From a virus (lineage: Duplodnaviria > Heunggongvirae > Uroviricota > Caudoviricetes): a stretch of 4,971 nt of DNA. The translations under genes were made by a program, and so were the position numbers. Under the pieces are notes generated by a model. That model saw only the letters and a list, made by a program, of their open reading frames with translations. It was not told where the DNA came from and made no database searches. The DNA lies in the IMG/VR virus record IMGVR_UViG_2600254997_000016, positions 1 to 4,971 of that record, one strand, 5' to 3'. Shown piece by piece: positions 1 through 4,811 of this stretch (position 1 is the first letter of the stretch; each line of letters starts with the position of its first letter).

Positions 1-124
1 CGACTGGTGGGTGTTAGGGGCACTCACCAGCCATCCGCTCATGCGTCCGGATCACAAGCAAACCTCAGGCCCACTGCTTTGCGCAAAAGCAGAATGAGCC
101 TATCAGAGACAGGCTTAATGATCC

Positions 125-1174
125 ATGCTTAATACTGTAAAAATATCCAGTTGTGAGTTAGTCAACGCCGACTGCCTGGAATTTATCCGGTCGTTACCCG
201 AAAATTCTGTTGACCTGATAGTCACGGACCCGCCGTACTTTAAAGTGAAGCCCGAGGGCTGGGATAACCAGTGGAAGGGCGACGATGATTACCTGAAGTG
301 GCAGGACCAGTGTCTGGCGCAGTTCTGGCGGGTGCTGAAACCTGCCGGAAGTCTTTACCTGTTCTGTGGCCATCGCCTGGCATCTGACATTGAAATCATG
401 ATGCGTGAACGCTTCAGTGTGCTGAACCATATTATCTGGGCGAAGCCGTCCGGACGCTGGAACGGATGCAACAAGGAAAGCCTGCGGGCGTATTTCCCCG
501 CCACAGAGCGCATTCTGTTCGCGGAACATTATCAGGGGCCGTATCGTCCGAAAGATGCCGGGTATGAGGCGAAGGGCAGGGCACTGAAACAGCATGTGAT
601 GGCCCCGCTGATTGCTTACTTTCGTGATGCGCGCGCTGCCCTGGGGATAACGGCAAAACAGATTGCAGATGCCACAGGAAAGAAAAACATGGTGCCGCAC
701 TGGTTCAGTGCCAGTCAGTGGCAGCTACCGAACGAAAGCGATTATCTGAAATTACAGTCGCTGTTTGCCCGGGTGGCAGAAGAGAAACATCAGCGCGGGG
801 AACTGGAAAAGCCACACCACCAGCTGGTCAGCACATACAGTGAGCTGAACCGGCAGTATATGGAACTGCTGAGTGAATATAAAAATTTGCGGCGGTATTT
901 CGGTGTGACGGTGCAGGTGCCGTACACCGATGTGTGGACGTATAAACCGGTGCAGTACTATCCAGGGAAACATCCGTGCGAAAAACCGGCAGAAATGCTG
1001 CAGCAGATAATCAGCGCAAGTAGTCGTCCTGGTGATCTGGTTGCGGATTTTTTCATGGGGTCGGGTTCAACGGTAAAAGCGGCGATGGCACTGGGGCGTC
1101 GTGCGATTGGTGTTGAGCTGGAGACCGGACGTTTTGAGCAGACAGTCAGGGAAGTTCAGGATTTAATCGTTTGA
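125..1174 (+). CDS. Orphan DNA methyltransferase, beta-class N6-adenine/N4-cytosine family (probably N6-adenine)
   Basis: 349-aa ORF. Motif IV DPPY at aa 35-38 (nt 227-238, in VDLIVTDPPYF) lies near the N-terminus and AdoMet-binding motif I FMGSGST at aa 310-316 (nt ~1052-1072) near the C-terminus, which is the permuted beta-class order (as in M.RsrI-type enzymes). The ~150 aa between them would be the target-recognition region. No endonuclease partner in the window. The only in-frame start is ATG 125, directly after a TGA at 119-121; there is no strong SD. Confidence 0.88.
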   Translation: MLNTVKISSCELVNADCLEFIRSLPENSVDLIVTDPPYFKVKPEGWDNQWKGDDDYLKWQDQCLAQFWRVLKPAGSLYLFCGHRLASDIEIMMRERFSVLNHIIWAKPSGRWNGCNKESLRAYFPATERILFAEHYQGPYRPKDAGYEAKGRALKQHVMAPLIAYFRDARAALGITAKQIADATGKKNMVPHWFSASQWQLPNESDYLKLQSLFARVAEEKHQRGELEKPHHQLVSTYSELNRQYMELLSEYKNLRRYFGVTVQVPYTDVWTYKPVQYYPGKHPCEKPAEMLQQIISASSRPGDLVADFFMGSGSTVKAAMALGRRAIGVELETGRFEQTVREVQDLIV

Positions 1175-1223: not shown

Positions 1224-1299
1224 GGCCCTTTAGCTCAGTGGTGAGAGCGAGCGACTCATAATCGCCAGGTCGCTGGTTCAAATCCAGCAAGGGCCACCA
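1224..1299 (+). tRNA. ileZ: tRNA-Ile (anticodon CAU, lysidine type, reads AUA)
   Basis: 76-nt cloverleaf read by hand: acceptor GGCCCTT (1224-1230) pairs with AAGGGCC (1289-1295); D-arm GCTC/GAGC; anticodon loop CTCATAA with CAT at 1257-1259; T-arm GCTGG-TTCAAAT-CCAGC; discriminator A and encoded CCA at 1297-1299. Very similar to E. coli ileX-type tRNA-Ile2. The symbol follows the ileZ-argN-argO cluster of Stx/lambdoid phages. tRNA-Met cannot be strictly excluded from sequence alone. Confidence 0.85.
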
Positions 1300-1308
1300 T
1301 ATCACATA

Positions 1309-1385
1309 CCGCCATTAGCTCATCGGGATAGAGCGCCAGCCTTCGAAGCTGGTTGCGCGGGGTTAGAGTCCTCGATGGCGGTCCA
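1309..1385 (+). tRNA. argN: tRNA-Arg (anticodon UCG), with atypical T-loop
   Basis: 77-nt cloverleaf: acceptor CCGCCAT (1309-1315) pairs perfectly with ATGGCGG (1375-1381); D-arm GCTC/GAGC with GG in the loop; anticodon stem CCAGC/GCTGG with loop CTTCGAA, anticodon TCG at 1343-1345; T-stem CGGGG/CCTCG (one G-U); T-loop TTAGAGT has A where the near-universal C56 is expected; CCA at 1383-1385. Symbol by positional analogy only. Confidence 0.7.
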
Positions 1386-1398
1386 TTATCTGTACCCT

Positions 1399-1475
1399 GC
1401 GTTGTTAGCTCAGCCGGACAGAGCAATTGCCTTCTAAGCAATCGGTCACTGGTTCGAATCCAGTACAACGCGCCA
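1399..1475 (+). tRNA. argO: tRNA-Arg (anticodon UCU, reads AGA/AGG)
   Basis: 77-nt cloverleaf: acceptor GCGTTGT (1399-1405) pairs with ACAACGC (1465-1471); D-arm GCTC/GAGC; anticodon stem ATTGC/GCAAT with loop CTTCTAA, anticodon TCT at 1433-1435; canonical T-arm ACTGG-TTCGAAT-CCAGT; discriminator G and CCA at 1473-1475. Symbol by positional analogy. Confidence 0.85.
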
Positions 1476-1486
1476 GACTTATTTTT

Positions 1487-1514
1487 CCCGGCTCGCTTTT
1501 GCGGGCCTTTTTTT
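1487..1514 (+). terminator. Rho-independent terminator after the tRNA cluster
   Basis: Stem GGCTCGC (1490-1496), loop TTTT, stem GCGGGCC (1501-1507), 7 bp with one G-U, followed directly by T7 (1508-1514). It begins 12 nt after the CCA of the last tRNA. Confidence 0.7.
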
Positions 1515-1741
1515 AAATGTCTCACAATTCAGACGGTTGACAGTTGTCTGTTTTGCGGGGAGTTTGTTAAAAGAAACTGGCATGGTGAATCCCCCTGTGC
1601 GGAGGGGCAATCAGCGAGTAGGTATATGGGATAATCGCGGATTCAGGTGCTGGTACTGAATTCACCGGGAGGCACCCGGCACCATGCAATGGCACATAGC
1701 GCCACTCTCCAGCCCCTCTCCGGAGGGGCTTTCTTATGGAC

Positions 1742-1770
1742 AAAAAAAGCCCGCGCTGGGAGACGCGGGC
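1742..1770 (-). terminator. Putative rho-independent terminator oriented for the minus strand
   Basis: Perfect 7-bp GC-rich stem GCCCGCG (1749-1755) / CGCGGGC (1764-1770) with an 8-nt loop, preceded on the + strand by A7 (1742-1748), which is a U7 tail on the minus-strand transcript. No T-tract follows on the + strand. Confidence 0.5.
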
Positions 1771-1963: not shown

Positions 1964-2743
1964 ATGGCATTTAAACACTATGATGTTGTCAGGGCGGCGT
2001 CGCCGTCAGACCTTGCGGAAAAGCTGACACACAAACTGAAAGAGGGCTGGCAGCCATATGGCGGACCGGTTGCCATTACGCCGTACACACTGATGCAGGC
2101 GGTGGCTATTGAAGGAGATCCACAGGTCGGCCCTTCATCTGAGCCGGACTGGTTCTACGTGGTTGTGCTTGCCGGACAGTCCAACGGCATGGCCTACGGT
2201 GAAGGGCTTCCGTTACCGGATTCTTACGATGCTCCGGATCCGCGCATTAAACAGCTGGCGCGCCGCAGCACGGTAACTCCGGGTGGAGAGAGTTGTACGT
2301 ATAACGACATCATCCCGGCTGACCATTGTCTGCATGATGTTCAGGATATGAGTACGATTAACCATCCCCGGGCTGACCTGAGCAAAGGGCAGTACGGCTG
2401 TGTCGGACAGGGCTTACATATTGCCAAAAAACTGCTTCCGTATATCCCTAATAATGCGGGGATCCTGCTGGTACCATGCTGTCGTGGTGGTTCGGCATTC
2501 ACCCAGGGCACGGAGGGGACATTCAGCGAGTCCACGGGGGCCAGTCAGGATTCGGCTCGCTGGGGAGTGGGTAAGCCGTTATATCAGGATCTGCTTTTTC
2601 CGCACGAAGGCAGCATAGCAGAAAAACCCGAAAAACGTTTTGCTGGCGATATGCTGGATGCAGGGGGAATTCGATATGACGAATGCCAGTTACGCCCAGC
2701 AGCCAGCAGCATTTCTTGCAATGGTACAGCAGTTCCGTGCTGA
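1964..2743 (+). CDS. nanS-p: nanS-p-like prophage 9-O-acetyl-sialate esterase, N-terminal fragment (DUF1737-like N-terminus plus start of SASA/SGNH esterase domain); frame interrupted
   Basis: 259-aa ORF with SD GGGAGG (1954-1959) 4 nt before ATG 1964. The N-terminus MAFKHYDVVRAASPSDLAEKL resembles the DUF1737 start of prophage NanS-p esterases. The catalytic-serine motif GQSN is at aa 71-74 (nt 2174-2185). The frame stops at TGA 2741-2743, overlapping the next ORF, so this is one gene broken by a frameshift (see findings). Confidence 0.75.
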   Translation: MAFKHYDVVRAASPSDLAEKLTHKLKEGWQPYGGPVAITPYTLMQAVAIEGDPQVGPSSEPDWFYVVVLAGQSNGMAYGEGLPLPDSYDAPDPRIKQLARRSTVTPGGESCTYNDIIPADHCLHDVQDMSTINHPRADLSKGQYGCVGQGLHIAKKLLPYIPNNAGILLVPCCRGGSAFTQGTEGTFSESTGASQDSARWGVGKPLYQDLLFPHEGSIAEKPEKRFAGDMLDAGGIRYDECQLRPAASSISCNGTAVPC

Positions 2744-3797
2744 CTTTGCCGGGCTGGCGGCGCAGTGTCACGGTGGAAGTCCGGCATCAGTCCCCTGGAT
2801 TTGCGGCGACACGACATACGCGTGGAAACAAGAACACGGTACGCAATATGAAGTGGTATATGGTGCATATAAAGGTAAAGAATCCCAGCAGATTTATTTT
2901 GTTCCCTTTATGACCGATGGTAGCGGAGTTAATACACCGACAAACAACCCGTCAGAAGATCCTGATATTGCCGGGTCTGGTTATTACGGTTCGGCATCCC
3001 GAACGAACAAAAACTGGGTATCATCAAATCGCCCGACGCATTTCAGCTCATGGGCGCGTCGTGGCATTATTCCCGATCGTATGGCAACTGCTATTCTGAA
3101 CGTAGCCGGTCGCACCTTAGCCTTCATTAGTGGTAAGGCACCGGAAATCAAACCCTCGCCCGGCGGCGACACGCCATCGGGGCCGTCTGAAGATGCATCC
3201 GTACGCACAATCTCCCTGTTGCCGACAGCCGGAGATGCTGCTGCGCAGGGCTGGAGCATTAAGAATGGCGGAATTCAGTTGTCAGATGGTGTATTTAAGA
3301 TCACCAAGCAGAGCAATAAAACCTGGTCCCTGATGCATCCGGTGGATGACGCAATTACCCTGCTGACACAGGGCGGCAGACTGACCTGTAAGTTCCGCCT
3401 CTCAGGCGCACTGACCAACAATCAGTTCGGGCTGGGGATTTATCTGTATACGGACGCTCCCGTTCCTGATGATGTGGCGATGACGGGTACTGGTAATCCG
3501 TTCCTGATGTCTTACTTCACTCAGACCACTGACGGCAGAGTGAATCTGATGCATCACAGGAAAGCCGGAAACACGAAGCTGGGGGAGTTCGGCGATTACG
3601 GTAACGACTGGCAGACGCTGGAGCTGGTGTTCACCGCCGGCAGTGCCACGGTTACTCCGAAACTGAATGGAGTGGCTGGCCCGGCATTCCAGGTTATAAA
3701 AGACAGTCTGACACTGGGACTGAATGCGCTGACGCTGACGGATGTTACAAAAAATGCAGCGTATGGCGTTGAGATAGAAAGTCTGGTGCTGGAGTAA
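2640..3797 (+). CDS. nanS-p: nanS-p-like esterase, C-terminal fragment (rest of SASA domain plus C-terminal domain); not an independent gene
   Basis: 385-aa ORF in the frame one position ahead of 1964-2743 (positions 0 vs 2 mod 3). It is open from just after TAG 2616-2618; the track start at 2640 is a TTG, not a credible initiation site. It contains WMQGEFD (nt ~2655-2675), matching the SASA-family QGE(S)D block expected downstream of GQSN. Stop TAA 3795-3797. Confidence 0.7.
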   Translation: MLAICWMQGEFDMTNASYAQQPAAFLAMVQQFRADFAGLAAQCHGGSPASVPWICGDTTYAWKQEHGTQYEVVYGAYKGKESQQIYFVPFMTDGSGVNTPTNNPSEDPDIAGSGYYGSASRTNKNWVSSNRPTHFSSWARRGIIPDRMATAILNVAGRTLAFISGKAPEIKPSPGGDTPSGPSEDASVRTISLLPTAGDAAAQGWSIKNGGIQLSDGVFKITKQSNKTWSLMHPVDDAITLLTQGGRLTCKFRLSGALTNNQFGLGIYLYTDAPVPDDVAMTGTGNPFLMSYFTQTTDGRVNLMHHRKAGNTKLGEFGDYGNDWQTLELVFTAGSATVTPKLNGVAGPAFQVIKDSLTLGLNALTLTDVTKNAAYGVEIESLVLE

Positions 3798-4107: not shown

Positions 4108-4314
4108 ATGGAAAAAATCACAACAGGTGTGTCATACACCACGTCAGCGGTGGGGACGGGATACTGGTTACTGCAGCTGCTGGACAAAGTCTCTCCGTCC
4201 CAGTGGGTGGCAATAGGTGTGCTGGGGAGTCTGCTGTTTGGCCTGCTGACGTATCTGACAAACCTTTATTTCAAGATTAAAGAAGATAAGCGCAAGGCTG
4301 CGAGAGGTGAATAA
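4108..4314 (+). CDS. S: Holin S, phage-21-type pinholin (S21-68-like)
   Basis: 68-aa ORF with SD GGAG (4093-4096) 11 nt before ATG 4108. Two predicted transmembrane segments ([18 protein letters not shown] and [23 protein letters not shown]) and a charged C-terminus [13 protein letters not shown]. Closely resembles the phage 21 pinholin as I recall it. The stop TAA 4312-4314 overlaps the R start as TAATG. Confidence 0.9.
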
Positions 4315-4811
4315 TGCCTCCATCATTACGAAAAGCCGTTGCTGCTGCTATTGGTGGTGGGGCTGTTGCCATAGCGTCTGTGCTCATCACTGGTCCGAGT
4401 GGTGACGATGGCCTGGAAGGTGTCAGCTACATACCATACAAAGATATCGTTGGCGTATGGACTGTATGTCACGGACACACCGGAAAAGACATCATGCCCG
4501 GTAAAACGTATACCGAAGCAGAATGCAAAGCCCTCCTGAATAAAGACCTTGCCACGGTCGCCAGACAAATTAACCCGTACATCAACGTCGATATACCGGA
4601 AACAACGCGCGGCGCTCTTTACTCGTTCGTTTACAACGTGGGCGCTGGCAATTTCAGAACATCGACGCTTCTTCGCAAAATAAACCAGGGCGATATCAAA
4701 GGCGCATGTGATCAGCTACGGCGCTGGACATACGCTGGCGGTAAGCAATGGAAAGGGCTGATGACTCGCCGCGAGATTGAGCGTGAAGTCTGTTTGTGGG
4801 GGCAACAATGA
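4314..4811 (+). CDS. R: SAR endolysin R (T4-lysozyme-like muramidase with N-terminal signal-anchor-release domain), R21-like
   Basis: 165-aa ORF. N-terminal Gly/Ala-rich weakly hydrophobic segment [20 protein letters not shown] (aa ~8-27) is a typical SAR domain. Catalytic triad in E-8aa-D-5aa-T spacing: E35, D44, T50 ([17 protein letters not shown]). SD GAGG at 4303-4306. Pairs with the pinholin upstream. Confidence 0.9.

Follow-up and report, generated by a model that had tools for sequence, protein, structure and literature searches.

A natural M.EcoGII-type adenine methyltransferase allele in the late region of a lambdoid prophage

Genes and features of the window

The DNA analysed here is a single stretch of 4,971 nucleotides (hereafter the window) from the virus record IMGVR_UViG_2600254997_000016. 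From its 5' end it carries an untranslated leader, an intact, full-length methyltransferase ORF of 349 aa with an ATG start, three tRNA genes, an interrupted nanS-p-type esterase gene and a lysis cassette (Table 1).

Table 1. Coordinates of features within the window; position 1 is its first nucleotide.
Feature	Position	Strand	Basis or remark
Untranslated leader, from upstream 65-aa ORF to methyltransferase start	1..124	+	alignment to L006
Imperfect hairpin AGCCTATC-AGA-GACAGGCT	97-115	scored on minus strand	hairpin scan
Methyltransferase CDS, natural M.EcoGII allele	125..1174	+	ORF list, PF01555, M.EcoGII identity
Motif IV DPPY (aa 35-38), catalytic, adenine-binding	227..238	+	read from sequence
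Codon 60, CAG (Gln)	302..304	+	nt 303 is A in the window, T in M.EcoGII
Target-recognition domain (aa 160-237)	602..835	+	limits from PMC11551740; no differences from M.EcoGII
Motif I F-M-G-S-G (aa 310-314), AdoMet binding	1052..1066	+	read from sequence
tRNA, anticodon CAT	1224-1299	+	ARAGORN: Met
tRNA-Arg (TCG)	1309-1385	+	ARAGORN
tRNA-Arg (TCT)	1399-1475	+	ARAGORN
Terminator-like GC-rich hairpin, then seven T; closes methyltransferase-tRNA block	1490..1507	+	hairpin scan
Terminator-like hairpin, first of facing pair	1711-1730	+	
Terminator-like hairpin, second of facing pair	1749-1770	-	
nanS-p-type SASA 9-O-acetyl esterase gene	1964-3797	+	split by a frameshift near 2590-2640
P21-type class II holin, 68 aa	4108-4314		
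Lysozyme, 165 aa, hydrophobic N-terminus	4314-4811		

Comparison with related prophage loci placed the left end of the window, nt 1-1978 corresponding to nt 9877-11854 of locus L006 (99.95%), while a further locus, L007, matched the first 1,606 nt at 99.9%. In L006 the 65-aa ORF ends at 9850, with a hairpin at 9837-9854, both lying outside the window. A small ORF (7..132) that runs over the methyltransferase start codon was rejected as a chance ORF, having no family match and being uncalled in the related loci. The hairpin within the leader forms eight pairs on the minus strand, including one G-T, and has an A-C mismatch on the mRNA strand; it was observed to end 10 nt before the methyltransferase ATG, over a purine-rich candidate ribosome-binding site.

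The first tRNA gene begins 50 nt downstream of the methyltransferase ORF, and the hairpin that closes the block is also present in L002 (11366-11383). RefSeq labels the C227-11 equivalent of the first tRNA, called Met by ARAGORN, as tRNA-Ile, a label that would be in keeping with lysidine modification of the CAU anticodon, which would then read AUA. Two facing terminator-like hairpins were observed in the gap that separates the tRNAs from nanS-p, and in the corresponding gap of C227-11 RefSeq marks a short pseudogene fragment on the minus strand (L001 10447-10572), just upstream of the equivalent position. This suggests that a cargo gene was lost or replaced here and left remnants, at the site that stx occupies in Stx phages.

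The esterase gene was interpreted against an intact 617-aa homologue (L002 11840-13693), of which aa 1-224 correspond to frame 2 (nt 1964-2635) and aa 213-610 to frame 3 (nt 2601-3794), with a one-base insertion relative to L002 near nt 2590-2600. The broken gene is either a pseudogene or the product of a sequencing error, and the frameshift means that the prophage may be decaying. Past ~nt 1980 the identity between the window and the loci compared is no higher than ~90%, and the best match of the window among complete E. coli genomes reached 94.8%. The lysis cassette, consisting of a holin and a lysozyme, is unlike the cassette in loci that share this methyltransferase allele and matches phages 434 and 2B8 at ~91%; at least two lambdoid lineages have therefore contributed to the window, which is a mosaic.

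Family, fold and identity with M.EcoGII

The 349-aa protein matched Pfam N6_N4_Mtase (PF01555) over aa 29-340 (E = 4e-44; 151.6 bits, with a cut-off of 26.7 bits), as well as PHROG DNA-methyltransferase families (~1e-104) and the PADLOC Type II MTase model (2e-166). The DPPY motif is N-terminal, the FMGSG motif C-terminal and a helical insert (aa 146-254) central, which is the beta-class order. DPPY was invariant across an alignment of 78 homologues, as were F310, G312, S313 and G314. The protein was thereby confirmed as a beta-class amino (N6A/N4C) DNA methyltransferase. This bears out the initial annotation, which had read the permuted beta-class motifs from the sequence and suggested the PF01555 search reported here.

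An earlier AlphaFold2 model from 28 close homologues was discarded (pLDDT 65), while the 78-sequence alignment, which includes the N15-gp52 branch, gave a model with a pLDDT of 83.1. This model comprises a Rossmann core (aa 1-134 and ~270-349) and the helical insert, in agreement with the published M.EcoGII model, and the target-recognition domain contains predicted helices at 160-173, 177-184, 190-194 and 204-220 (pLDDT 86-95). Foldseek searches of the PDB returned beta-class amino-methyltransferases only, including CcrM (6pbd), M.BceJIV (8urk/9c3u), rotifer N4CMT, M.MboIIA and M.RsrI, with further matches to TTHA0409, M.PvuII, M1.HpyAVI and EcoP15I Mod. The top matches reached E-values down to 3e-16. 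M.BceJIV (8urk, 9c3u), CcrM (6pbd), M.RsrI and M.MboIIA gave Foldseek E-values of 1e-15 to 1e-13 at a probability of 1.00, with TM-scores of ~0.5 (query-normalised) and ~0.7 (target-normalised), and phmmer E-values of 6e-26 to 7e-15 at ~20-23% identity. These four solved enzymes share the Rossmann core and motif order of the window protein, but each is site-specific and none has the helical insert (~aa 146-254). None of the PDB matches found by Foldseek covered the insert, and no solved M.EcoGII structure was among the PDB matches from phmmer or Foldseek.

We found the window protein to be identical to WP_000935520.1 of strain C227-11 at 346 of 349 residues. The M.EcoGII sequence (GenBank EGT69837.1) is printed in Supplementary Table S1 of PMC11551740, and WP_000935520.1 mismatches it at three spots only; these look like machine-reading errors, and the strings NHHIW and GRRRAIG repeat in other rows of the table. 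Because the two sequences agree apart from these glitches, WP_000935520.1 can be equated with M.EcoGII, which comes from E. coli O104:H4 C227-11. The window gene differs from M.EcoGII by three amino-acid changes (I13V, L60Q and K244Q) and three synonymous changes, and the two proteins share their length (349 aa), motifs and target-recognition domain, with aa 61-243 the same in both. Public assemblies include at least 24 contigs that encode exactly the 349-aa protein of the window. Among 5,426 complete E. coli genomes, 1,917 had a gene match with ≥80% coverage, and the best matches were in O104:H4 outbreak strains including C227-11, at 99.4% nucleotide identity.

C227-11 is the source strain of the non-specific adenine methyltransferases M.EcoGI and M.EcoGII (PMC5778455). 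Restriction protection, LC-MS and SMRT experiments showed that M.EcoGII methylates adenine in any sequence context, with as much as 99% of dA modified in vitro and >85% in vivo, and that its methylation blocks twelve restriction enzymes (six-cutters) (PMC5778455). The specificity of the window protein can be assigned because it is near-identical to this enzyme, and the 346/349 match to a characterised methyltransferase in practice contradicts the initial annotation on the point that specificity could not be read from the sequence. The stretch at aa ~130-290, which the same annotation had expected to determine specificity while recognising no motif in it, does correspond to the published helical target-recognition domain and linker and is in that respect interpretable (PMC11551740). 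Within M.EcoGII, aa 160-237 form a four-helix bundle with a helix-turn-helix (PMC11551740), and across aa ~130-290 residue 244 is the sole difference between the two proteins. By every feature testable in silico the window protein is a member of the M.EcoGII clade, and we infer that the allele would methylate adenine in any context.

M.EcoGI, the second prophage copy in C227-11, is also non-specific and 349 aa long, and is identical to M.EcoGII at 333 of 349 residues (PMC5778455, PMC4659465). These reported figures put M.EcoGI and the window protein in one close family and require M.EcoGII to be the nearer of the two enzymes to the window protein.

Gene order around the methyltransferase

The related loci L002-L006 share one gene order. 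A cI-like repressor, cro, replication genes, a DUF968 gene and a Q antiterminator gene (PF06530) are followed by the 65-aa ORF, the methyltransferase, nanS-p (SASA esterase), holin, lysozyme, Rz and terminase, with the tRNAs placed between the methyltransferase and nanS-p. L007 carries another type of Q (PF03589) ahead of the same 65-aa ORF and methyltransferase; the identical allele was thus observed in at least two prophage backgrounds with differing Q types. A terminator-like hairpin, AAACCCGCCGCGAGCGGGTTT followed by seven T, lies ~70 nt past the Q stop codon in the related loci, and a second one is found where the 65-aa ORF ends. A simple promoter scan gave no consensus late promoter. The layout matches that of a late transcript antiterminated by Q, and the position of the methyltransferase together with the terminator-like hairpins fits its control by Q. 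The gene had been placed in a prophage late region, just upstream of a tRNA cluster, in the initial annotation, and the Q-side gene order and the three tRNAs agree with that placement.

The M.EcoGII locus itself is also a lambdoid prophage with Q, the 65-aa ORF, the methyltransferase, three tRNAs, a SASA esterase and lysis genes. It differs in having two extra reverse-strand genes between Q and the 65-aa ORF, encoding proteins of 182 and 308 aa (L001 6920-8381, minus strand). Neither had a match in Pfam or PADLOC, and both are missing from the L002-L007 contexts; they could be moron or defence cargo. In the early region of L007 we also observed a gene (3239-6037) for a 932-aa protein with weak Cap4_nuclease, AAA_22 and SEC-C matches, which is not adjacent to the methyltransferase and is possibly a defence gene.

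A more distant relative, gp52 of phage N15, is 56% identical to the window protein over 97% of its length, and its gene has a similar setting, with an annotated promoter and terminator ahead of it and the holin and lysozyme genes immediately behind. It differs in being 362 aa long, with a longer helical insert. N15 gene 52 (AF064539.1) is annotated from 41621 (285 aa), whereas an uninterrupted 362-aa ORF (L009 3001-4089) starts at 41387 and aligns from residue 1 of the window protein, DPPY included, so the deposited start is probably too far downstream.

Remnants of the methyltransferase were observed in Stx2 phages. The O104:H4 Stx2 phage P13374 lacks the full gene and retains a 3' portion (L008 23441-23880). 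Together with many 933W-like Stx2a phages, it keeps the last ~33 codons (aa 316-348, 85-88% identical). The same tRNA cluster and stx2 come immediately after this remnant. An ancestral methyltransferase-tRNA module seems to have lost its full-length methyltransferase gene by deletion in these phages.

No endonuclease gene was found within the window, nor, in other assemblies, across the 10 kb that precede the identical allele. The neighbours of the methyltransferase are Q, the 65-aa ORF, tRNAs and nanS-p rather than the partner nuclease of a Type II R-M system. We asked whether the DUF968 protein, with its marginal HNHc_6 match, might be a concealed partner nuclease, and dismissed this since its gene lies beyond Q and the hairpins, in the replication-to-Q block. 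The initial description of the gene as an orphan, with no endonuclease partner, accordingly stands for the window and the flanks of the related loci, and the linked upstream endonuclease that it had named as evidence to the contrary was looked for there and not found.

Function of the allele and alternative readings

We consider it very probable that the gene encodes an M.EcoGII-type orphan methyltransferase, made late under Q and methylating adenine without regard to context, which shields progeny from restriction. In the lysogen the gene would be silent, lying downstream of Q and the terminator hairpins. Upon induction, Q-modified RNA polymerase would pass the hairpins, and the enzyme would be made with the lysis and morphogenesis proteins. 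It would then move methyl groups from AdoMet to the N6 of adenine in replicating phage DNA, in any context, before packaging, and the packaged DNA would be refractory to those Type I, II and III restriction enzymes that are blocked by adenine methylation.

Silence in the lysogen and expression after induction are proposed here because the gene sits behind Q and the terminator hairpins, and published observations are consistent with the silence. M.EcoGII is unexpressed in C227-11, and its over-expression slows growth (PMC5778455; reviewed in PMC12707154). For M.EcoGI and M.EcoGII together, growing lysogens show no methylation signature and constitutive expression is harmful (PMC5778455, PMC4659465, PMC6602927, PMC12707154); a Q-antiterminated placement would explain the absent m6A signature. 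The anti-restriction role was proposed for M.EcoGII by the authors of PMC5778455 and by later reviewers. A literature search for reports showing directly that this gene is expressed late, or that it leaves progeny DNA hypermethylated, returned none. The activity of the window allele and its natural anti-restriction role are inferred, and in that sense our analysis supports the initial annotation, which had ranked protection from restriction as the likeliest role. A parallel comes from phage Mu Mom and other broad phage DNA modifiers, which are silent in the lysogen, harmful if expressed artificially and switched on at induction to protect phage DNA (PMC12707154). Mom is, however, an unrelated protein with another chemistry, and the analogy is one of function only.

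The window allele may instead be impaired, with L60Q destabilising the helix after the DPPY loop and the gene carried as a silent, slowly decaying passenger of a defective prophage; we regard this as unlikely. The L60Q caveat is new in this analysis. Across the 78-sequence alignment, position 60 is Leu in 71 sequences, Ile in six and Gln in one, the window protein. A 61-nt probe around codon 60 returned 1,497 records from the 5,426 complete E. coli genomes, none of them identical. In the AlphaFold2 model residue 60 lies inside helix 53-70, following the DPPY loop, next to the invariant or near-invariant hydrophobic residues L57, W59, L64, F67 and W68. Since L60Q falls at a site that is otherwise Leu or Ile only and is absent from the 5,426 genomes, activity or stability could be reduced. 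The starting enzyme is itself marginally stable, with a Tm of 43 C for M.EcoGII (PMC11551740). The even split between amino-acid-changing and synonymous differences from M.EcoGII (three of each) gives no sign of strong purifying selection, and the nanS-p frameshift in the same window also favours decay.

Several observations nevertheless argue against impairment. The ORF is intact and full length, and the exact protein recurs on the contigs and in the prophage backgrounds described above. The solved homologue M.BceJIV carries Thr at the position aligned to residue 60, and a polar residue there is therefore not necessarily fatal. At positions 13 and 244 the substitutions restore the residue that prevails among the 78 homologues, V13 being found in 43 (Ile in 31) and Q244 in 36 (Lys in 20). 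Both are also present in Anc284/SUPREM, an enzyme that is non-specific by experiment (PMC11551740).

A substrate other than phage DNA was also weighed. M.EcoGII methylates RNA in vitro and the window gene has a conserved place immediately ahead of three tRNA genes, from which one could propose that the enzyme modifies phage tRNAs or late transcripts during lytic growth, or, given the rare L60Q, that the allele has an altered substrate preference. We give this very little weight.

That the orphan enzyme recognises a particular site, with its target set by the central region to which the initial annotation had assigned specificity, is more doubtful still. Most N6_N4_Mtase members are site-specific, and the database name 'site-specific DNA-methyltransferase' points the same way. 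However, the central aa 61-243 are those of an enzyme shown to be non-specific (PMC5778455), the clade members M.EcoGI and the reconstructed ancestors Anc291 to Anc242 are non-specific or were active on DNA and RNA in bulk methylation assays, and the nearest site-specific relative, M.PflMI, shows only 27% identity (PMC11551740).

That the gene is the modification half of an R-M system with its endonuclease just beyond the window is scarcely credible: the window holds only 124 nt of upstream sequence and the DUF968 protein with its weak HNHc_6 match is encoded two genes upstream in related loci, but the 99.9%-identical loci carry the 65-aa ORF and Q upstream and tRNAs and nanS-p downstream, the DUF968 gene belongs to the replication-to-Q block and is separated from the methyltransferase by Q and terminator-like hairpins, neither of the two unannotated C227-11 genes has a Pfam or PADLOC match, and a non-specific methylase would leave its partner no defined site to spare.

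Our preferred reading, the M.EcoGII-type orphan made late under Q, adds a natural allele to a type of enzyme whose non-specific activity is already known, and the finding is real but ordinary. M.EcoGII was described between 2012 and 2018 and is sold as a reagent. It has also been re-engineered as SUPREM (PMC11551740). For the M.EcoGII clade the label 'site-specific DNA-methyltransferase' is misleading, and the fixed position of the gene behind Q would account for lysogens that carry it without genome-wide m6A. L60Q, in turn, amounts to a small natural experiment on a marginally stable enzyme that is under active engineering.
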